64,000 nt of DNA from Candidatus Komeilibacteria bacterium (lineage in GTDB: Bacteria > Patescibacteriota > Patescibacteriia > UBA1558 > GWA2-36-10): positions 5,227 to 69,226 of the forward strand of contig JABHZY010000024.1 of NCBI GenBank assembly GCA_018656065.1, written 5' to 3'. Both the position numbers and the translations under genes were made by a program. Positions 2,251 to 61,162 of the stretch are shown here, piece after piece; the stretch's first letter is position 1; each line of letters starts with the position of its first letter. Below the pieces are notes generated by a model. It was given only the letters and a program-made list of their open reading frames with translations. It made no database searches and was not told the DNA's origin.

Positions 2251-3667
2251 ATTTTTTCCTAAGTGGTTGGTAATATTTATAGTTTTAGAATTATTATCTG
2301 GCCTAGCTTGGCGTTTTAACGATCTTAATTGGGTTGTGCTACTTATTATCGCTTTAGTTAGCTTATTTTTTCTTTTTAAAAAACCAATTTATTCTCTTTA
2401 TATACCCTTGGCTGAAATTTTTTGGGGATCATTGGGTCACAGCTTTGATTATAATATTATTAACACCCGACTACTAATATTTATATTAGTAGTGCTAGTT
2501 TTTGTAATTACAAATATACGTCAATTAAATAAGTTAAAACTCTTCAAGGATAAAGCTTTGGGTAGAGTTTATTTGTTTTTATTATTTTTTATATTAGTTA
2601 CTGTTGTATCCGGATATTATAATAGCTATAATCTTAAAAAAGTATTTTTTGATGCTAATGCTTATTTCTATCTTTTATATTTACCTATTTGGTATGAAGT
2701 TTACGATAAAAAATATTTAAAAAATGTATTTGATATATTAAAAGCAGCTGTTTTAGTAATAGCTGTTAAAACCTTAGTGTTACTTAATATTTTTTCTCAA
2801 GGTTATGAATTTATAGATACAGATAGTATCTATAAATGGGTTAGAGACACTAGAACAGGAGAAATTACACCGTTCAAAGATTCTTTTTTTAGAATTTTTA
2901 TGCAATCTCAATTTTATTTAATCTTGGCTTGGTTTTGGTTGTTTTTAAAGCAGATGAAGGATTTCAAGAATAAAAATAGTTTTTTATTACTAGCTATTAT
3001 CTCCGCGGCATTAATGATTTCTTTATCTCGTAGTTTCTGGTTAGGAGCTTTTATTGGCCTATTATTTATAGTGATAAATATTTTTATTTATCAAAAAAAG
3101 CGTATTTCATTTCATATATTTTTATCTTTAGGTGCTGTAGCTGTAGCGGGTATTTTATTGGTACAGGTTTTTTACAATTTACCAATTTATAAAAATATAA
3201 ATATTTTTACACAACGCACAACTAGTGTAGCTGAACCAGCTGCTAATACTCGTAGTCAATTATGGGGACCAATGTGGCAAACAATAGCAGAGCGTCCAGT
3301 AATTGGGCATGGTTTCGGTAAAGAGATTAGTTTTAAATCTTCAGATCCTCGTATAAAAAATGTAGATAATCCTGAAGGCTGGACTACTACTTATGCTTTT
3401 GAATGGGGTTGGATGGATCAATTAGTTAAGGGCGGGGGGATACTAGTCTTATTATTTGTTATTTGGATAATGCAGCTTTATTATCGGGCTTATGTTAGGA
3501 TAACAACTGACCCTGTACTTAGCTTAGTATTAACCGCTACATTGACTAGTTTGCTAATTATTCATATATTTACACCATATATTAATCATCCGTTAGGTTT
3601 AGCATTTTTAATGCTTGTTAGTATAATTTTTGGATCGTATGCAAAAAAAACCAACAGTTACTATTAG
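2219..3667 (+). CDS. O-antigen ligase/polymerase-like polytopic membrane protein
   Basis: 482-aa ORF that is almost entirely hydrophobic helices with one large loop. Sits among GT genes. Confidence 0.7.
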   Translation: MSYFSKEKQNRFFPKWLVIFIVLELLSGLAWRFNDLNWVVLLIIALVSLFFLFKKPIYSLYIPLAEIFWGSLGHSFDYNIINTRLLIFILVVLVFVITNIRQLNKLKLFKDKALGRVYLFLLFFILVTVVSGYYNSYNLKKVFFDANAYFYLLYLPIWYEVYDKKYLKNVFDILKAAVLVIAVKTLVLLNIFSQGYEFIDTDSIYKWVRDTRTGEITPFKDSFFRIFMQSQFYLILAWFWLFLKQMKDFKNKNSFLLLAIISAALMISLSRSFWLGAFIGLLFIVINIFIYQKKRISFHIFLSLGAVAVAGILLVQVFYNLPIYKNINIFTQRTTSVAEPAANTRSQLWGPMWQTIAERPVIGHGFGKEISFKSSDPRIKNVDNPEGWTTTYAFEWGWMDQLVKGGGILVLLFVIWIMQLYYRAYVRITTDPVLSLVLTATLTSLLIIHIFTPYINHPLGLAFLMLVSIIFGSYAKKTNSYY

Positions 3668-4637
3668 TTTACTTACTTGGAATGGTCAAAAGTATTTACC
3701 TTGGCTATTGAAGAGTTTATCTAAACAATCCTTTAAGGATTGGGAGCTTTTGGTTCTTGATAATGCCTCTACTGATAAATCAGTAGATATAATACGAGAA
3801 TATTATCCTAAGGCGAGAATTGTACATCAAAAACAAAATATTGGTTTTGCCAAAGGGCATAATCTACTTATTAATTGGTCTAATTCAGATTATATATTAG
3901 TTTTAAATCAGGATTTGATATTAGAGCCAAATTATATCAGAGAGCTGGTAGATTTTTTACAACAAAATACTAAAGTAGCTAGTTGTAGTGGTAAGTTAAT
4001 GTATTGGAATTTTAAGGCTGGTCTTAAAACTAAGACTATAGATTCTTATGGTTTTAAAATAGATAAAAAAAGAGAAGTGACTGATAGATATCAAGGACGG
4101 TCAGAAATAAAAATTGATAATGAAGAGGTCTTTGGCTTATCAGCTACGGCCACTTTATATAGACGCAAAGCACTGGAGATTATAGCTGGGCAAGCAAAAG
4201 CTAATCATTTTCAATATTTTGATGAAGATTTTTTTGCTTATAAAGAAGATATTGATTTAGCTTGGCGACTTAGATTATTTGCTTGGGAAAATTGGTTAGT
4301 TACTACTACTAAAGCTTATCATCACCGCAGTGTGTCTAAAGGTAAGGATCTTAAAGAGTCTCGTAAGACTAGGGGGTTTGCTAATAAACTTTCTTATCGC
4401 AATCATTTAATGTTACTTTATAAAAATTCTTTTTATAAAAACCTGTTTAAAGATTTTTTAGCTATTAAATGGTATGAGTTTAAAAAATTTGTTTATTTAT
4501 TATTATTTGAAAGAAGCACTCTAGTAGGTGTAAAAGAATATTTTGCTAATATTCCAAGTTTAGCTAAAAAAAGAAAATACATTATGAGACATAGAAAAGT
4601 GAATGCAGATGAAATATATAAATGGTTTGAAAAATAA
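3630..4637 (+). CDS. family 2 glycosyltransferase
   Basis: VTISLLTWNG...VLDNASTDKS and LNQD motifs. Confidence 0.85.
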   Translation: MDRMQKKPTVTISLLTWNGQKYLPWLLKSLSKQSFKDWELLVLDNASTDKSVDIIREYYPKARIVHQKQNIGFAKGHNLLINWSNSDYILVLNQDLILEPNYIRELVDFLQQNTKVASCSGKLMYWNFKAGLKTKTIDSYGFKIDKKREVTDRYQGRSEIKIDNEEVFGLSATATLYRRKALEIIAGQAKANHFQYFDEDFFAYKEDIDLAWRLRLFAWENWLVTTTKAYHHRSVSKGKDLKESRKTRGFANKLSYRNHLMLLYKNSFYKNLFKDFLAIKWYEFKKFVYLLLFERSTLVGVKEYFANIPSLAKKRKYIMRHRKVNADEIYKWFEK

Positions 4638-4638
4638 T

Positions 4639-5445
4639 ATGGAACTTTCAATTGTAATTTTAAATTATAATAATAAAAATTTAGTCAAAGAACTTTTAAA
4701 GAATTTGACAGAATTAAATATTTCATATCAGTATGAGATTATTGTAGTTGATAATGCTTCTTATGATGGCATAAAAGATATTATTAAAGAAAAATTTCCA
4801 AATATTAAATTTATTCAGAGTGACAAGAATGGCGGTTTTGCTTCTGGTAATAATCTTGGCATTAAAGAAGCTCAGGGTAAGTATATTATGATTATGAATC
4901 CTGATTTAGCAATTTTATCTGACGCTATAGATAAACTTTATCAATATATGGAAAATAATCTTGAGGTGGCTTTGGCTGGACCAAGATTAATTAATGCTGA
5001 TAAAAGTGTACAGCCATCTTGTACCACATTACCAGATTGGAAGCTACCAATGTACAGACGCACATCTTTAGCCAATACTAAAGCTGGGAAGAAATGGTTA
5101 GATAAATATTTAATGAAGGATTTAGATCATTATAAAAATAATTATGTCCCAGCTTTGTTTGGAGCTTGTTTAATTTTTCGTCGTGATGCGCTAGATAAGG
5201 TGGGTTTATTAGATGAGCGCTATTTTATGTATTTAGAAGATTTAGATTGGTCTCGTCGTTTTTGGCAGAATGGCTATAAAGTGGCTTATGTTGGCGAAGC
5301 TGAGATTATCCACTTACATCGTCGTCAATCAGCTGCCCAGGGGCTTTTGAAGACATTATTTTCCAAAACAGCTCGTAATCATATTATTAGTTTTGTTAAA
5401 TATCTCCTAAAATTTAAGGGTCAGAAATTACCTAAAATTTCTTAA
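4639..5445 (+). CDS. family 2 glycosyltransferase
   Basis: MELSIVILNYNN...VVDNASYDG and MNPD motifs. The ATG at 4639 sits just after the upstream stop and is preferred to the track start at 4603. Confidence 0.85.
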   Translation: MELSIVILNYNNKNLVKELLKNLTELNISYQYEIIVVDNASYDGIKDIIKEKFPNIKFIQSDKNGGFASGNNLGIKEAQGKYIMIMNPDLAILSDAIDKLYQYMENNLEVALAGPRLINADKSVQPSCTTLPDWKLPMYRRTSLANTKAGKKWLDKYLMKDLDHYKNNYVPALFGACLIFRRDALDKVGLLDERYFMYLEDLDWSRRFWQNGYKVAYVGEAEIIHLHRRQSAAQGLLKTLFSKTARNHIISFVKYLLKFKGQKLPKIS

Positions 5446-12531: not shown

Positions 12532-12552
12532 AGTTTATTTAGATTATAACTC

Positions 12553-12581
12553 TTGACAAATATTAATATCTATGTTATAGT
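12553..12581 (+). promoter_or_regulatory. promoter of RNA A
   Basis: TTGACA, 17 nt, TATAGT. Confidence 0.65.
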
Positions 12582-12587
12582 GAGTAA

Positions 12588-12710
12588 TCACCCAAGGAAG
12601 GTGAAACTTATCTGGACCAGCAAAGTCCAAAAGATCCCCCGCTGCTGGCGTTCGTCCCCCGTTTTCTCCTCACATGGAGAATTCTAGAACGCCAGCAGCC
12701 CCCCTTTTTT
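12588..12710 (+). ncRNA. orphan GC-rich small RNA A (about 123 nt), family unknown
   Basis: Starts downstream of a consensus promoter. Hairpins CACC/GGTG and TGGAC/GTCCA. A 13-bp stem (12641-53 / 12687-99) encloses a CUCC/GGAG hairpin. Ends in T6. No ATG ORF with an RBS. Confidence 0.55.
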
Positions 12711-12759
12711 ATAAGGGTTTTTTGTTTATTTAAAAATTTAGCTAAAATGAAAAAAGGGA

Positions 12760-12969
12760 CCTTACGATCAGATCCCTCTTCTTCCACCCCAGCACATGGG
12801 CCAGAATGGGTGCTCCCTATAAGGAAGCTGAGAAAGCGGCGTTCCGGATTAGCGTGTCGGTCTTCACGAAGGTTCAGCTTTACACTAATGACCTAGTGAA
12901 GTTTTAAACCAATTACATCAAATCCAGATGCCTACTTTACATTGTTGGTACGTTTGCTTTTTGAGCACA
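12760..12969 (-). ncRNA. orphan GC-rich RNA B (about 210 nt), family unknown
   Basis: Minus-strand promoter at 12976-13004. 3' hairpin GGGAUC/GGUCCC (12766-86) plus U6. Its U.G pair is valid only on the minus strand. Only ORFs of 16 codons or fewer. Confidence 0.55.
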
Positions 12970-30479: not shown

Positions 30480-32216
30480 TTATTCTAAGATTGCCTTGAT
30501 GCGTCTAATACCAGCTGATGAAGACTGTTCTTTTTTGATATGAAAATGACCTAAATGTTTAGTATTATCTACATGAGGACCGCCACAAATTTCTTTAGAA
30601 AAGCTTCCTACTTCATATATTTTTATCTTTTCACCATATTTATTATCAAAAAGACCAATAGCACCTTGATTTTTAGCTTCATCTACTGACATTTCTTTAA
30701 AATTTACTTCCAAACCAGCTTTAATTTGCTCATTAACCATATCTTCCACAGCTTGTTTTTGCTCAGGAGTTAATGCTTCAGGATGAACAAAATCAAACCT
30801 TAATCTTTTTTCATTGATATTACTACCACGTTGTTCGACGTGATCGCCTAATACATTTCGCAAAGCTTGATGTAGCAGATGAGTGGCAGTGTGATATTTG
30901 GTAGCCATTTCTCCGTCATCAGCTAATCCGCCTTTAAACATTCCAGCGCTAGCAGTTCTAGATAGTTCTTGGTGTTTTTTAAATTCAGCTTCGAATTCTT
31001 GCTTGTTTATTTTAATATTACTTTCTTGAGCTAATTCTTCAGTCATTTCTAGTGGAAATCCATAGGTAGAAAACAATACAAAAGCAGCTTTACCATCAAC
31101 AGTTTTTAGTTTAGTAAATTCTTTTAGTCCTTTTGCTAAAGTCTTAGTAAATTTCTCTTCTTCTTTGGTTAATTCAGAAATTATAAATTTTTTATTATCT
31201 ACTAACTCAGAATAACCTGATTTATATAAGTTAATTATTATTTCAGCTAATTCAACACAAAAATTGTTTTCTATATTTATTGATTTGCCAAATCTTATTG
31301 CTCTTCTGATTAATCTACGCAAAACATAACCTTGATCTTTATTGGATGGAGCTATACCACGTGGATCACCCATCATAAATACAGCCGATCTAATATGATC
31401 AGCTATGATTCTAAAAGACTTTTTATCATCTTCATATTTTTTACCAGAAAGTTTTTCTAGTTGTTTTATAATTGGCTGCCAGAGCTCAGTTAAATAATTA
31501 TCATCAAAGCCATTAAGCACCGCTAAGGTTCTTTCAAAGCCCATACCAGTATCAATATTTTTTTGTTTTAATGCTTCGTATTTACCATCAGCGGTTTTAT
31601 TGTATTGCATGATGACATTATTCCAAATTTCTACCCAACCATTATCATCTTCATGAAACACCTCAGGAGCATCTCCTTGACCTGTCCAATAGAATATCTC
31701 TGTATCAGGACCACAAGGACCAGTTTGTCCAGCTGGACCCCACCAATTTTCTTTTATCTTTTCTATTCTATCTTGAGCTACTCCGAGATCTAACCAAACC
31801 TTTTCTGATTGACTATCATAATTCGGCACATCTTCATTACCACCAAAAATAGATACAGCTAGATTTTTTTTGTCTAACTTTAATGTCCCAGTTAAAAATT
31901 CCCAAGAAAATTTAATAGTTTCTTCTTTAAAATAATCGCCTAATGACCAATTGCCAAGCATTTCAAAAAAAGTATGGTGGGTAGCATCGCCCACTTCGTC
32001 TATGTCTCCAGTTCGGACACATTTTTGGACATTGACTAATCTATTGCCTTCAGGATGTTTTTCTCCAACTAGATACGGCACCAAAGGATGCATACCAGCA
32101 GTAGTGAATAAAACTGTTGGATCATTTTCCGGAATTAAAGAAGCAGAGCTAATCAATGCATGATTTTGGCTCTGAAAATATTCAAAAAAACTCTTTTTTA
32201 ATTCTTGTGAAGTCAT
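30480..32216 (-). CDS. alaS: alanine--tRNA ligase, short form without the C-Ala domain
   Basis: Class II catalytic core. Editing-site HTATHLLHQAL and CGGPHV motifs. The ATG at 32216 (MTSQELKK) is preferred to the TTG at 32231. Confidence 0.93.
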   Translation of the reverse strand: MTSQELKKSFFEYFQSQNHALISSASLIPENDPTVLFTTAGMHPLVPYLVGEKHPEGNRLVNVQKCVRTGDIDEVGDATHHTFFEMLGNWSLGDYFKEETIKFSWEFLTGTLKLDKKNLAVSIFGGNEDVPNYDSQSEKVWLDLGVAQDRIEKIKENWWGPAGQTGPCGPDTEIFYWTGQGDAPEVFHEDDNGWVEIWNNVIMQYNKTADGKYEALKQKNIDTGMGFERTLAVLNGFDDNYLTELWQPIIKQLEKLSGKKYEDDKKSFRIIADHIRSAVFMMGDPRGIAPSNKDQGYVLRRLIRRAIRFGKSINIENNFCVELAEIIINLYKSGYSELVDNKKFIISELTKEEEKFTKTLAKGLKEFTKLKTVDGKAAFVLFSTYGFPLEMTEELAQESNIKINKQEFEAEFKKHQELSRTASAGMFKGGLADDGEMATKYHTATHLLHQALRNVLGDHVEQRGSNINEKRLRFDFVHPEALTPEQKQAVEDMVNEQIKAGLEVNFKEMSVDEAKNQGAIGLFDNKYGEKIKIYEVGSFSKEICGGPHVDNTKHLGHFHIKKEQSSSAGIRRIKAILE

Positions 32217-32309
32217 ATTATTATAATTCAAAAAATTTACTGTTTTTACAGTAAATCTGTATATATTTTAGTAAATTATAGCTTAAAAGTCAACTTATTT
32301 TAGTAAGTT

Positions 32310-32610
32310 AAAAACCCTGTCAGAGTACGAAGAAGCTGAAAGGGGGTTCAGCAGCTCGTTGATCACGAAGTGATCCTCTGACAGGGTGTGTCGTGGTGGA
32401 CCTTGATTAGGTTCCGCTCCGCTCTGATCGTGTGGCAGCGCTAGGCAATTTATTACCTAAATCAAGGTCCAACTATATTAATAGGGTCATCGGTGGAGGT
32501 CTGCTATAGCTGCTGGATCTAAAAGATCCATTGGCTTGGGTGCGTACACAGCCACAGCCACAGCCTCATGGAGGAGAGAAAGACACATCGATGACCCAAG
32601 AACATATAAC
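32310..32610 (-). ncRNA. orphan GC-rich structured RNA D1 (about 300 nt, three domains); strand tentative
   Basis: Three domains: an 11-bp stem 32315-25 / 32376-86 closing a three-way junction; a 15-bp stem 32398-412 / 32455-70; and a 12-bp stem 32484-95 / 32586-97. On the minus strand it is preceded by TTGACT-17-TATACT and ends in U5. One G.U in the third stem favours the plus strand instead. Confidence 0.45.
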
Positions 32611-32616
32611 CGAGCC

Positions 32617-32645
32617 AGTATATATTATATACTAAAGATAGTCAA
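32617..32645 (-). promoter_or_regulatory. candidate promoter of RNA D1
   Basis: TTGACT(32645-40), 17 nt, TATACT(32622-17) on the minus strand. Confidence 0.4.
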
Positions 32646-32661
32646 TATCTAGCAAATAAAC

Positions 32662-33120
32662 AAAAAAAAGTACCGGTCCCCCGCGTGAAATACGAGGGAC
32701 CGGCGAGAAAGGCTGCTACGAGCAAGCGTCGACGGGTTGAAGTATATTCTCTCCAGTTGGGACAGGATACCCCGGTCGGAGTTTGAGTCAACAGACAACA
32801 TGCTGGGGTCGCAAATCCCAGCGCTCCTTGAAACGGTCCTTGAAGGACCAGGTGCTTGCTTGCAATAGCAGCCACTTACAGTGGCCATCGCATTTTGATT
32901 GAATAGATCTGAGAGAGACGCCGGCGTTCCGTAGAACAGGTGTGATATGCTAGTCAAAGGCGCTAGCAGGCACACTGATGGTCTTGTCTCCCTATCCAGG
33001 GCAATCGTAAATTGATGGTCACTACCATCGTGTCGTATCTCCGTATTCTCGGACTTGTTTTTCCCTCCTAAGAAGTGTATTATGACACGCTGGCTTTAAA
33101 ATTGATGAACCCTTCTTGAC
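32662..33120 (-). ncRNA. orphan GC-rich structured RNA D2 (about 460 nt), family unknown
   Basis: Minus-strand promoter at 33127-56. Many local hairpins, including GAUGGU/ACCAUC, GCUAG/CUAGC, GCCAC/GUGGC, GGUCC/GGACC and GCUGGG/CCCAGC. An 11-bp terminator stem (32673-32703) has a U.G valid only on the minus strand and is followed by U8. The ORFs in this region run through the terminator. Confidence 0.55.
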
Positions 33121-33126
33121 TATTTA

Positions 33127-33156
33127 ATTTTAGACTAAACAAAGTAATATTGTCAA
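33127..33156 (-). promoter_or_regulatory. promoter of RNA D2
   Basis: TTGACA(33156-51), 18 nt, TAAAAT on the minus strand. Confidence 0.6.
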
Positions 33157-33207
33157 GAGTTTAGCTAATTTATCCACAAATATACTTAATTTATTGATTT
33201 TACAAGC

Positions 33208-33236
33208 TTTACAAAAATATATAAATATTATATTAT
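33208..33236 (+). promoter_or_regulatory. candidate promoter of the leader-peptide / 70-aa gene unit
   Basis: TTTACA, 17 nt, TATTAT. The ATG of the leader ORF lies 7 nt after the -10 (leaderless). Confidence 0.5.
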
Positions 33237-33243
33237 TTAGTTT

Positions 33244-33306
33244 ATGAAACAAATCAGCCAAACATATTATTTTCTTTGGCGTAACACTTATATTGATAAG
33301 TGGTGA
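33244..33306 (+). CDS. candidate 20-aa leader peptide MKQISQTYYFLWRNTYIDKW
   Basis: ATG at the predicted TSS. 6 of 20 residues are aromatic. The ORF covers segment 1 and segment 2 of the alternative structures. Confidence 0.4.
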   Translation: MKQISQTYYFLWRNTYIDKW

Positions 33307-33373
33307 TTTGTTATTTAGTTTTTAAATTTATATTAAATATCAGTTCGTCGCTTATCAATAAGCGATTTTTTTT
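33285..33373 (+). promoter_or_regulatory. candidate transcription attenuator (1:2, 2:3, 3:4 alternative hairpins)
   Basis: 1:2 hairpin CACTTAT/ATAAGTG (33285-302). 2:3 pairing ATTGATAAG (33292-300) with CTTATCAAT (33351-59), 9 perfect bp and extendable with wobbles. 3:4 terminator TCGCTTA-TCAA-TAAGCGA (33348-65) plus T8. Confidence 0.5.
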
Positions 33374-33413
33374 GTTTTTCGTCACTATCACTCTAGAGCC
33401 AAGGAGGGCCACA

Positions 33414-33626
33414 ATGCCCTGTACACTCAGCAAAGGTCAAGATGTTCGGAATATTGGAACTGGTGAAGCCCATATTATCACTGATATGCGCAAAACTCCT
33501 CCTCGTCAAATTGTTGGAGGTTGGGGGTCTGATGTCGTAGAATATACTCACATCCAGGTAGATGGGCAAACTAACAACGATGGGCATCCGGTTTGGCAAG
33601 CCTCTGGTGATTTCGAAGAAATCTAA
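33414..33626 (+). CDS. orphan GC-rich small protein (70 aa)
   Basis: Strong SD AAGGAGGG 5 nt before the ATG. Protein-like composition. Own terminator. The GTG at 33300 in the track is an unlikely start. Confidence 0.7.
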   Translation: MPCTLSKGQDVRNIGTGEAHIITDMRKTPPRQIVGGWGSDVVEYTHIQVDGQTNNDGHPVWQASGDFEEI

Positions 33627-33658
33627 GACTTGCTTTGGAGTAAGAGGAGCAAAAAGAA

Positions 33659-33690
33659 AGAGAGGTGCTAAGCGCCTCTCTTCTTCTATT
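33659..33690. terminator. terminator shared by the 70-aa gene and the convergent LRR gene
   Basis: AGAGAGGTGC-taa-GCGCCTCTCT hairpin with T-rich flanks on both strands. Confidence 0.6.
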
Positions 33691-33707
33691 TATAATTTTG
33701 TAATCCC

Positions 33708-34550
33708 CTATTTCTTTATAATATCTGTATTACTAAGACCAGCTTCTATGATATCTAGGTCATAAACAGAATAATTGTTACCTGAAATATTTAAAGTTTT
33801 TAAAGTTTTTAAATTAGCTAATTCATGAGGTAAGCCAGTAAATAAATTATTTGATAAATCTAATTCCTCCAGATTAGTAAGTTGACCTATTTCAGCTGGT
33901 AGATTAGTCATTTTATTATTACTAATATCTAAAATTCTTAATTTAGTGAGATTTCTAATTTCAGCTGGCAAAGTGTCACTTATATTATTATGAGATATAT
34001 TTAAAATTTCTAAATTAGACGCTTTTAAAACACGCTCCGGAAAAGAATTTAAGCTTGCATCTTCCATATTATGTTCTTTGATATTTTCATAATCTAAAAA
34101 AACAACTGCCCTAGTATTTTCTACCGTTTCTCTAAACTCTTCACTATCTGGATGATTATAAAATTTTGGAATGTAATGAAATCCTAGAGTAGCTATTATT
34201 ATAACTACAGCTCCTACAATAGCTAATATGCTTCGGCCATAGTCTACTTTAACTACATTTCTGCCAGATTGTTTAGCATTATTAACTTGTTTTGGCGTTT
34301 TCGGTTCGGTATATTTACCTTGTTTAATATAATTTTTATCTACTGCTTGACCCATCCATTGGATTATCCTGTTTTGCATAAAAATTAAAATTACAAATAT
34401 TGGCCACATGTTTGTAATTAAGCTAAAAGCTAATATAACGTAATAGTATAGTTTTAATTTATGACTTCTAGATTGCGGAGTGTCATTCTCTGAAATTATA
34501 AAATTGTTTTTATCCATATTTTTAGTATTAAAGTGACTATAGTATAACAA
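33708..34550 (-). CDS. membrane-anchored leucine-rich repeat (LRR) protein
   Basis: Two or three TM segments, then five or more LRRs (LxxLxLxxNxL), e.g. LEILNISHNNISDTLPAEIRNLTKLRILDISNNKMTNLPAEIGQLTNLEELDLSNN. Confidence 0.85.
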   Translation of the reverse strand: MLYYSHFNTKNMDKNNFIISENDTPQSRSHKLKLYYYVILAFSLITNMWPIFVILIFMQNRIIQWMGQAVDKNYIKQGKYTEPKTPKQVNNAKQSGRNVVKVDYGRSILAIVGAVVIIIATLGFHYIPKFYNHPDSEEFRETVENTRAVVFLDYENIKEHNMEDASLNSFPERVLKASNLEILNISHNNISDTLPAEIRNLTKLRILDISNNKMTNLPAEIGQLTNLEELDLSNNLFTGLPHELANLKTLKTLNISGNNYSVYDLDIIEAGLSNTDIIKK

Positions 34551-37576: not shown

Positions 37577-37604
37577 CCGCCCTGAGCGTAGTCGAATGGG
37601 CGGT
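37577..37604. terminator. bidirectional terminator
   Basis: CCGCCC...GGGCGG hairpin flanked by A5 and T runs. Confidence 0.7.
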
Positions 37605-37611
37605 TTTCTTT

Positions 37612-38271
37612 TTACTTAGTACTTATTACTATCCATTGGCCACTTTCATCTTTTTTCATTTCTAATTTACTAAATTTAGCAAACATTTTTTCTAATTCTA
37701 CTTTGTCATAAAAACTATGAGGTATATCTTTTTCGGGACCAATTAAAGGAATGGCTGTATTTTTATCTAACATCTTATGTTCTTTGAAAGTTCGCCAAGT
37801 CTTTAAACATTTCTTGTCCGGAATAGTTATAAAAGTTTTACCTCCATCCATAAGAGCAGTATAAATTTCGTTTACTAATTTTTGTAAATCTTTTTTAAAA
37901 CCATGATTAATTGTTCGAATAGATATTATAAGGTCGTATTTATTAGGGATTATTTTCATATTAAACATATCAGCCTGTTTTATATTCCCTACTTTAAGCC
38001 CTAAAACCTCTTTGGTCATAGCTACTGAGGTTTCACTAAAATCAATCCCATCCACTTTAAAACCCAAGGAAGCTAAATAATTTAGATACTGTCCTTTACC
38101 ACAACCAATATCAAAAACATAACTATCTTTAAAATTTGTTTTAGATACAAATTCAACAAATAAAGGACTGATACCTTCTATAAAACAACAAGGTACCACT
38201 CCATCATTCATATCTTGCCAACTTTCATCTTTTTTATTAAAAGCTTTGTAGATTTTATCCCAATTTGCCAT
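37612..38271 (-). CDS. class I SAM-dependent methyltransferase
   Basis: Motif I VFDIGCGKGQY. Confidence 0.8.
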   Translation of the reverse strand: MANWDKIYKAFNKKDESWQDMNDGVVPCCFIEGISPLFVEFVSKTNFKDSYVFDIGCGKGQYLNYLASLGFKVDGIDFSETSVAMTKEVLGLKVGNIKQADMFNMKIIPNKYDLIISIRTINHGFKKDLQKLVNEIYTALMDGGKTFITIPDKKCLKTWRTFKEHKMLDKNTAIPLIGPEKDIPHSFYDKVELEKMFAKFSKLEMKKDESGQWIVISTK

Positions 38272-60877: not shown

Positions 60878-60993
60878 TTTATTATGAATTACTATTTAAT
60901 TAATTACAAAATTATTATAGCATTAAATTGTTTGTTTGTAAAATTTGCTGAGAATAAATCTAGATTAAAACAATAACTAAATCTATAAAGCTG

Positions 60994-61003
60994 TGGCTCG
61001 GGG
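60994..61003 (-). repeat. direct repeat of the tRNA-Gln 3' end (CCCCGAGCCA)
   Basis: The 10-nt tggctcgggg at 60994-61003 is identical to 61089-61098. Confidence 0.6.
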
Positions 61004-61088: not shown

Positions 61089-61162
61089 TGGCTCGGGGAC
61101 AGGGAGTCGAACCCCGATTGACGGGACCAGAACCCGTTGTCCTACCATTAGACGATCCCCGA
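61089..61162 (-). tRNA. tRNA-Gln (anticodon CUG), CCA encoded
   Basis: Manual cloverleaf. Acceptor TCGGGGA/TCCCCGA, D arm GTC/GAC, anticodon stem ACGGG/CCCGT with loop TTCTGGT, T arm CGGGG-TTCGACT-CCCTG, then G-CCA. Confidence 0.9.

Follow-up and report, generated by a model that had tools for sequence, protein, structure and literature searches.

What is encoded between alaS and the next gene upstream is the question raised by this locus. The sequence analysed here, a 64-kb stretch (the window) with a G+C content of 32%, has as its nearest public genomes those of Candidatus Komeilibacteria and other Patescibacteria MAGs. In it, alaS is separated from an LRR protein gene (nt 33708–34550) by 1.4 kb that is devoid of any credible long ORF and harbors two islands of ~50% G+C. 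The ORF downstream is clearly an alanyl-tRNA synthetase (AlaRS; Pfam tRNA-synt_2c, E 5e-134) of the short form (578/583 aa), most likely starting at the ATG at nt 32216. The evidence described below indicates, with a probability of about 60%, that the part of the gap closest to alaS carries a stand-alone gene for a non-coding RNA, denoted D1, which has its own sigma-70-type promoter and ends at its own stem and U-tract.

Setting and signals of the D1 gene

The predicted D1 RNA is ~300 nt in length and is encoded on the minus strand (nt 32610–32310), the same strand as alaS. Its G+C content is 49%, compared to 32% for the genome, and a homologue in another lineage shows a similar enrichment (54% against 35%). 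A consensus scan finds a promoter at nt 32645–32617, consisting of a -35 box (TTGACT, 32645–32640), a 17-nt spacer and a -10 box (TATACT, 32622–32617), from which transcription is inferred to start near nt 32610. At the other end, a stem is followed by U5 (32314–32310). Folding of nt 32610–32310 gives a minimum free energy of -124 kcal/mol, against -85 ± 5.2 kcal/mol for dinucleotide shuffles (z -7.5), and none of 100 shuffles reached the native value. All of the D1 features that had been described in a first-pass annotation of this DNA, including the TTGACT-17-TATACT promoter and the U5 tract that flank it, were present when the minus strand was read.

D1 is not protein-coding. ORFs within it do not exceed 38 aa, stop codons break all three frames in the alaS sense, and no ORF is common to the D1 sequences of the window and two homologous loci, L174 and L176 (described below), so that a small-protein gene was rejected. 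The whole intergenic region is 100% identical across at least 10 independently assembled contigs; D1 is therefore not an assembly artefact, and for the same reason these copies offer no variation to analyse. Further upstream, a 70-aa ORF (nt 33414–33626) is an orphan, and when used as an anchor it retrieved only identical copies of the locus. D1 itself is single-copy, with no second copy in the window or in 184 loci.

Secondary structure of D1

Read 5' to 3' on the minus strand, the first helix of D1 is P2, defined by folding and covariation. Its 5' arm (nt 32597–32581) consists of GGGUCAUCG (32597–32589) and a UG/GUCU extension, and its 3' arm (32502–32484) of AGAC..CA.CGAUGACCC, where CGAUGACCC occupies 32492–32484. 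Nine perfect pairs are followed by an A.C mismatch (G.U on the plus strand) and then by the pairs UG/CA and GUCU/AGAC; the 12-bp helix of the first-pass annotation is thus present, but its perfect run is only 9 pairs long. P2 encloses a variable cap (32580–32503), in which folding places a CCUCC hairpin-loop motif (32574–32570), a (UGGCUG)x3 tract (32565–32547), the previously described (CAGCCA)x3/CUG-register helix, and the GGAUC/GAUCC hairpin (32529–32515) noted with it. In the window the interior of P2 is 90 nt long and forms three hairpins; in the model based on L174 and L176 it is 53 nt long and forms one, and the two do not align.

P2 is joined to the next helix by a conserved single-stranded junction, UAUUAAUAUAGUU (32483–32471; consensus in relatives UAAUAGUU, from the alignments). 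Helix P3 follows, with the 5' arm GGACCUUGAUUUAGG (32470–32456) and, from folding and covariation, the 3' arm CCUAAUCAAGGUCC (32411–32398). In the window it has 14 pairs and one bulged U, rather than the 15 bp previously counted for this singly bulged helix. Its proximal 8 bp are invariant, while the distal 7 bp covary (window, AUUUAGG/CCUAAU; L174, GGCUGGG/CUCAGUC). In the alignment, the apical region (32455–32412) includes the conserved GAGC[G/U]GAGCGGAA motif together with a CCUAG segment. An alternative pairing, available in both deep lineages, joins the distal 5' arm of P3 to the CCYAG segment of its own loop; the resulting hairpin is 94% paired and has one compensatory and one single-sided change. 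This is weakly suggestive of a switch or a folding intermediate. Directly 3' of P3 lies an unpaired ACCAC (32397–32393), which is invariant in five aligned sequences.

The 3' domain (32386–32310) is predicted by folding to be formed by a perfect 11-bp stem, CCCUGUCAGAG (32386–32376) with CUCUGACAGGG (32325–32315), which closes a three-way junction, as earlier described, with two inserted hairpins (32376–32361 and 32352–32335) and is followed by U5. In L174, L176 and L177 the corresponding element is a simple hairpin with a U-rich tail that lacks the two inserted hairpins. The last of the three domains originally recognised is therefore better regarded as an elaborated intrinsic terminator, and it follows that the conserved core of D1 consists of two helices of ~15 bp and a few single-stranded motifs. 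Conserved elements are P2, P3, UAAUAGUU, GAGC[G/U]GAGCGGAA, GAGCKGAGCGGAA, ACCAC, the base of the terminator stem and a GAUCRCUUC loop motif.

Homologues, covariation and strand

The alaS loci used for comparison were drawn from genomes, metagenomes and a large protein-indexed collection. Homologues of D1 were found in L174 (nt 3672–3912), L176 (nt 3664–3914) and L177/L178 (nhmmer E 1e-10 to 1e-78), the last two preserving only the 3' part of D1 at truncated contig ends. D1 is accordingly known in the window and in three other Patescibacteria lineages. The question of whether relatives keep the element next to alaS receives a divided answer, as it is kept in these lineages but is absent from L001 and L002. 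In the AlaRS tree, the lineages with D1 homologues sit in a clade other than that of the window. AlaRS of the L174/L176 group is 74% identical to that of the window and the alaS DNA is 76% identical; across the alignable 114 nt, D1 shows 70% identity, which is about the divergence rate of alaS DNA. A TTGACA-17-TATAAT promoter is found at the same position relative to D1 in L174 and L176, so that a conserved promoter and an intrinsic terminator of its own, as expected of an independent sRNA, are seen in the window and in both of these loci.

A covariance model (R1) with three specified helices was built from just two sequences, L174 and L176, leaving out that of the window. It matches the window at nt 32618–32359 (65 bits, E 4e-17) and finds L177/L178 at E ~1e-6, while a search of 39 Patescibacteria loci gave no further matches. 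In the alignment based on R1, 99.3% of the cells form standard pairs, and 10 of the 42 pairs are changed on both sides (four in P2, three in P3 and three in the terminator). When the 3' partners were slid by 1–3 columns as a control, there were 0–1 double changes and 27–49% pairing. Considered separately, P2 has 15 pairs, four of them changed on both sides, with 97.6% of cells paired, and P3 has 15 pairs, three of them changed on both sides, with 100% of cells paired. The three terminator pairs refer to L174/L176 compared with L177/L178, the elaborated terminator of the window being left out, and the overall count stems from three to four lineages that are effectively two deep branches, in an alignment fitted to the model. 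Compensatory changes in helices, the hallmark of a structured RNA family, are thus present in a small set of sequences under a model-fitted alignment, and they allow structural selection on the helices of the predicted RNA to be shown across lineages. A multi-domain structured RNA on the alaS strand, as initially proposed, is supported by both the fold (z -7.5) and the retention of its helices through compensatory changes.

The strand had previously been left unsettled because one pair of the window (32493 with 32588) forms a G.U only when the plus strand is read. That observation is correct, but the single A.C that it implies stands against 13 G.U pairs in the homologues that are consistent with the alaS-sense strand. 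Together with the conservation of promoter and terminator in the same orientation, this assigns D1 to the minus strand. A functional transcript on the plus strand, antisense to alaS, is very improbable. It would account for the window pair just mentioned, and folding of the plus strand is strong as well (z -6.3), but the 13 homologue G.U pairs would turn into A.C, the conserved promoters and the stem with its U-tract exist on the minus strand only, and R1 gives 18–21 bits on the reverse strand against 289–300 bits on the forward strand.

RNA-B and the alaS-upstream region in other lineages

D1 is the second member of a tandem pair in every case seen. The first is RNA-B, a predicted RNA of ~460 nt on the minus strand (nt 33125–32662), with a promoter (TTGACA-18-TAAAAT, 33156–33127) and a terminator followed by U8 (32704–32672). 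In L174 and L176, each D1 homologue has a homologue of RNA-B immediately upstream (nhmmer E ~1e-120 to 1e-92). The order RNA-B, D1, alaS promoter recurs in these two loci and is thus conserved as a unit. A 108-aa ORF within RNA-B was rejected as a small-protein gene. RNase P RNA, considered for RNA-B because of GGAGGGAAAAACAAGUCCGAG, was also dismissed, since no model matched and the AAGUCCG-like stretch is not conserved in L174 or L176. RNAduplex comparisons of D1 with the alaS leader and with RNA-B yielded unconstrained duplexes, and in the MAFFT/RNAalifold analysis RNA-B was misaligned with L181.

The interval between greA and alaS is variable, from ~1 kb in L001 through 1.6 kb in L002 to 4.8 kb in the window. 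In nearly every relative, a structured RNA with promoter and terminator is predicted directly before the alaS promoter, for example at nt 4065–4340 of L001 (z -4.2) and nt 4655–4925 of L002 (z -8.2). Such RNAs also occur in L172, L173, L181, L182 and L183; L084 contains two of them, and L175 lacks one. Searches with nhmmer and R1 connect none of these RNAs to D1, and the RNAs do not align with D1 or RNA-B, although some share short motifs or the style of the closing helix. The second RNA of L084 (nt 410–697) carries a GGGUCAUC...GAUGACCC domain in common with D1, which suggests homology; R1 gives no match to it. The RNAs of the other lineages may be either fast-diverging homologues of D1 or replacements of it. 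Orthology of RNA-B with the L001 and L002 RNAs, proposed on the likeness of their promoters, was dropped, as the same ACTCTTGACAA promoter type is found at nt 12550 of the window and so is probably just the strong-promoter consensus of this lineage. Two further unclassified structured RNA-like genes are located at nt 12578–12722 (plus strand) and nt 12968–12740 (minus strand), and structured RNA genes appear to be common in this genome.

Comparison with known RNA families

At the gathering score, Rfam 15 detects only tRNA-Gln in the whole window. Relaxing the threshold to E<=10 for nt 31800–33800 gave no T-box, tRNA, tmRNA, RNase P, SRP or 6S RNA, and only chance-level matches (HACA snoRNA, HOTAIR); the proposed cmscan comparison, RF00230 included, thus assigns this region to no Rfam family. 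The one- or two-piece form of tmRNA was rejected for both D1 and RNA-B, as ARAGORN reports no match in the window or in the D1/RNA-B regions of any locus, and there is no tag ORF. RNase P RNA was rejected for D1 (family regions CR-I/CR-V, GAGGAAAGUCC ... ACAGAA..GGCUUA), there being no Rfam match at E<=10. Mobile DNA was also considered. In the P2 domain, however, GGGUCRYC...GRYGACCC occurs once per genome, only in D1 homologues and L084, with no second copy in the window, and the MITE interpretation was rejected because the domain is single-copy. A blastn search of nt 32290–33140 against phage and plasmid collections found nothing, and a scan of viral contigs for GGACCTTG-N45-75-CAAGGTCCACCA gave two matches, both due to chance and inside GC-rich coding sequence.

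The T-box leaders (RF00230) deserve particular attention, as they too are structured RNAs of a few hundred nt that precede an aminoacyl-tRNA synthetase gene on the same strand and end in a terminator-like stem. Unlike them, D1 has no UGGN bulge or T-box sequence, is separated from alaS by an independent conserved promoter, and itself carries an NCCA-like sequence instead of an NCCA-binding site. The earlier rejection of a T-box is borne out by the lack of any RF00230 match to D1 even at E<=10. In relatives, no T-box was found at E<=0.1 (L001, L002) or at E<=1 (L174, L084, L172, L173, L177). Contiguity of a leader would moreover be broken by the separate conserved promoter before alaS (TTGACT-17-TAAAAT, nt 32293–32265).

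A further parallel is offered by the raiA, OLE and HEARO motif RNAs, orphan structured non-coding RNAs that came to light as intergenic islands of high G+C content in the AT-rich genomes of bacteria. Like these, D1 stands out as a GC-rich island, is flanked by a promoter and a terminator of its own and has several covarying helices, and like them at the time of discovery it has no assigned function. It differs in that it matches none of those families, has a much narrower distribution (four lineages seen), possesses unusually long and perfect helices with freely variable caps, and stands in a fixed tandem with a second RNA.

Relationship of D1 to alaS

In all four D1-bearing lineages, D1 ends ~16–20 nt before the -35 box of alaS. 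This promoter, identified by consensus scan and by its conservation (TTGACT-17-TAAAAT, minus strand), lies outside D1 and marks its downstream boundary; it is followed by a leader hairpin with U6 (nt 32256–32230). The promoter-leader block (nt 32293–32232) is 98% identical in L001/L081/L086, the AlaRS of which is 85% identical, and these lineages have a 198-aa ORF upstream of alaS in the place of D1. The alaS promoter is recognisable in all relatives read, among them L002, L172, L173, L175, L181, L182 and L183, which lack D1. Since it is kept in eight lineages without D1, alaS has its own promoter and D1 is not needed in cis, which argues against D1 being the alaS leader.

Two possibilities had been raised at the outset, an independent RNA or a read-through leader for the synthetase. 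The former is favored by these data, and the latter is not supported, given the conserved alaS promoter that lies between. As a cis-acting element, D1 would be a long leader or would supply a second alaS promoter, with read-through at a conditional terminator and the alternative pairings of P3 acting as the switch. The shared strand and the constant 16–20 nt spacing would suit such a role, as would the choice between two pairing segments that the distal 5' arm of P3 has in both lineages. The U-tracts of L174 and L176 are also weak (UCUUCAAUUU), so that some read-through towards alaS is possible. Nevertheless, a leader is unlikely, because the intervening promoter serves alaS on its own in eight lineages, the alternative pairing of P3 leaves the terminator uninvolved, no signature of a T-box or other riboswitch is found, and the terminator stem is conserved and covaries. 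The constant adjacency of D1 and alaS in four lineages could reflect a functional link, but is discounted here.

A tRNA-like end on P3

The end of P3 (GGACCUUG.../...CAAGGUCC) and the ACCAC after it show no variation among the window, L174, L176, L177 and L178, while the bases immediately beyond diverge (CGACAC, UUUUUG, CUUUUG, UAACCC). P3 thus has one feature of a tRNA-like domain, a terminal helix with an unpaired discriminator and CCA 3' of it (A73-CCA). The segment that runs from G1 to CCA measures 77 nt in the window, compared with 80 nt in L174. CCA is encoded in the tRNA-Gln gene of this genome, and nearly identical ends (GGACCUG...CAGGUCCACCA) are seen in tRNA genes with a CAU anticodon at other loci retrieved for comparison. 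At position 3:70, P3 has A-U in all three sequences that retain both arms (pair 207/278). The G3.U70 wobble is the identity element of the alanine acceptor, is required by AlaRS, and allows this enzyme to charge tmRNA; P3, with A3-U70, lacks it. In the window ARAGORN sees only tRNA-Gln (nt 61089–61162), and the Rfam tRNA model has no match at E<=10 within nt 31800–33800. D1 shows no T-loop, D-loop or cloverleaf signature, and a T-arm-like hairpin (loop CGGAAAA) and a three-way-junction alternative, both seen in L174, have no counterpart in the window.

tRNA-like elements without an anticodon arm include the tRNA-like domain of tmRNA, viral 3' tRNA-like structures and the MALAT1 mascRNA. D1 resembles these in its long terminal helix, the 3' strand of which leads into an unpaired ACCA, in a longer precursor with a 3' trailer, and in a segment of about tRNA length. 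It departs from them in having no T- or D-loop signatures and in being missed by ARAGORN and the tRNA model. From tmRNA in particular it differs by A3-U70 in place of G3.U70 and by the lack of a tag reading frame. Elements of this type are treated in reviews (PMC3985003, PMC7749636, PMC8457004).

Weighing the alternatives

Given the acceptor-like end, D1 might be a tRNA-acceptor mimic tied to alaS, in which a P3-ACCA minihelix engages AlaRS or another tRNA-binding factor. Processing would then involve RNase P at G32470 and 3' trimming to the CCA at nt 32394 (...GGUCCACCA), and A3-U70 could make the product a non-chargeable decoy. The invariance of GGACCUUG.../...CAAGGUCC-ACCAC beside a divergent linker, the tRNA length of the G1-CCA segment (77–80 nt), the resemblance of the helix end to tRNA(CAU) acceptor stems, the CCA encoded by the tRNA-Gln gene of this genome and the constant proximity of alaS all agree with such a role. 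It is nonetheless doubtful, as neither ARAGORN nor Rfam (E<=10) recognises a tRNA or, in the case of ARAGORN, a tmRNA, neither a T-loop nor a cloverleaf is present and the window lacks the T-arm-like hairpin of L174, position 3:70 is A-U and not the G.U of alanine, the possible distant relative in L084 (nt 410–697) has no ACCA after the equivalent helix, and a four-base motif can be conserved for other causes. tRNA mimicry by D1 is best treated as a lead, with a slim chance of being correct, and not as a classification. The same holds for a broader and quite speculative proposal, that D1 and RNA-B together represent a Patescibacteria-specific tRNA-acceptor mimic, a CCA-ended A3-U70 minihelix that may act as a decoy or regulator of AlaRS or a tRNA enzyme and might for that reason be kept beside alaS, at a site of rapid turnover of highly expressed structured RNAs.

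That D1 is instead a functionless, decaying relic, such as a degenerate tRNA gene, what is left of a mobile element or a GC-rich piece of DNA gained by horizontal transfer, is improbable. The interval between greA and alaS is indeed highly variable, with a different RNA in each lineage, and the closest relatives, L001 and L002, lack D1. The helices are unusually perfect and are partly built from short repeats, (UGGCUG)x3 and GAGCK, which suggests slippage. Against decay, compensatory changes have preserved three helices across lineages that share only 74% AlaRS identity, promoter and terminator are both kept, GC enrichment persists in two AT-rich genomes, D1 is single-copy in the window and the 184 loci, and its alignable part diverges at about the pace of alaS DNA (70% vs 76% identity).

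The most likely interpretation is therefore that D1 represents a new family of structured sRNAs with a narrow distribution in Komeilibacteria-like Patescibacteria, acting in trans. We infer action in trans as the default. D1 would be transcribed from its own promoter and ended at its own stem and U-tract, and the folded RNA would expose its unpaired, conserved motifs to a partner, either a protein or another RNA. It is probably a stable RNA with these motifs, perhaps including the CCA-like end, as recognition sites; the acceptor-stem-like P3-ACCA end would be the best candidate site for recognition or processing.

Implications for Patescibacteria

For annotation, D1 should not be labelled an alaS leader or a T-box. 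To our knowledge, almost nothing is known of the non-coding RNAs of Candidate Phyla Radiation bacteria, and this 64-kb piece of a Komeilibacteria genome contains at least four GC-rich, strongly folded, predicted RNA genes that run from promoter to terminator and have no Rfam counterpart. Three features set D1 above a routine example. It forms a conserved tandem with RNA-B, it has an acceptor-like ACCA end that is invariant and lies close to alaS, and its locus shows a turnover of structured RNAs, in that a single genomic slot is filled in sister lineages by RNAs that look unrelated. If the proposal of rapid turnover upstream of alaS is true, it would hint at diversifying selection on RNAs in these episymbionts. 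Should expression be confirmed, D1 and RNA-B would provide new RNA families that can readily be studied as a pair, and they offer a testable hypothesis in the form of a tRNA-like CCA end beside alaS.

RNA-B, the companion of D1

The structured RNA gene D1, which lies just upstream of the alanyl-tRNA synthetase gene alaS, is the second member of a tandem pair. The first, RNA-B (nt 32662–33156, minus strand), directly precedes D1. This GC-rich gene (50% GC) specifies a structured RNA of about 460 nt with a fold z-score of -5.0; its promoter, TTGACA-18-TAAAAT, is close to consensus, and a strong terminator consisting of a 13-bp stem and U8 closes it. RNA-B had no match in Rfam. At two alaS loci from relatives (L174 and L176), homologues of RNA-B directly precede those of D1, and the shared motifs include AGGAGGGRAARAA and GAUGGUAG.GACCAUCAA..UACGA. 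Divergent from RNA-B is a GC-rich ORF of 70 aa (nt 33414–33626, plus strand) with a strong ribosome-binding site, AAGGAGG. It carries no Pfam domain, and a search of 5.8 billion proteins returned only the ORF itself (on 26 contigs), so that it is an orphan.

The alaS leader and its product

The alaS 5' leader contains a hairpin (nt 32230–32256, minus strand; AUUUACUGU-AAAAA-CAGUAAAU) followed by U6, and the ATG at nt 32216 lies 14 nt beyond. The hairpin is retained in L174 with one G-C to A-U change, and locus L181 has a different hairpin followed by U7 at the equivalent position. Autoregulation of AlaRS in E. coli uses an operator palindrome; the leader hairpin could be an operator palindrome of this kind, or it could be an attenuator. 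The alaS ORF (nt 30480–32216, minus strand) specifies a short form of AlaRS, 578 aa counted from the ATG, which comprises the catalytic domain and SAD motif and is without the C-terminal C-Ala domain, a form also present in Patescibacteria relatives.

Other RNA-like genes and repeats

A convergent pair of unclassified RNA-like genes, each with a TTGACA promoter and a terminator, occurs at nt 12578–12722 (plus strand; z-score -6.8, with a perfect 13-bp long-range helix) and nt 12740–12968 (minus strand; z-score -4.4). Rfam gave nothing for either at E<=1.

The 3' end of tRNA-Gln (nt 61089–61162), CCCCGAGCCA, recurs downstream at a distance of about 90 nt from the gene (nt 60990–61000, minus strand). 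This copy may be a tRNA-like fragment or a footprint left by integration at the tRNA gene. A separate stretch of 37 nt (nt 37577–37613), containing the hairpin AACCGCCC...GGGCGGUU and a U run, is 94.6% identical to nt 702–738 of locus L084, where it sits right after the second of two RNA genes (nt 410–697); AlaRS is only 76% identical between these two genomes.

Apparent turnover upstream of the alaS promoter

In sister lineages, the corresponding position immediately 5' of the conserved alaS promoter is occupied by other structured RNAs with their own promoters and terminators. Single RNAs were found in L001 (nt 4065–4340), L002 (nt 4655–4925), L172 (nt 4510–4925), L173 (nt 650–880), L181 (nt 3492–3915), L182 (nt 1975–2375) and L183 (nt 3655–3995), and two in L084 (nt 116–367 and 410–697). 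None aligned with D1 or RNA-B, and none matched an Rfam family. The greA–alaS interval appears to be a hot spot for the turnover of RNA genes. A low-coverage marine contig, L082 (nt 1–1767), has an alaS 99.9% identical to that of the window and carries the 62-nt promoter-leader block that directly precedes the gene, and upstream of this block D1 and RNA-B are replaced by an L001-type ORF tail fused to a CapD-like ORF. This contig is either a chimeric assembly or derives from a strain with neither RNA.
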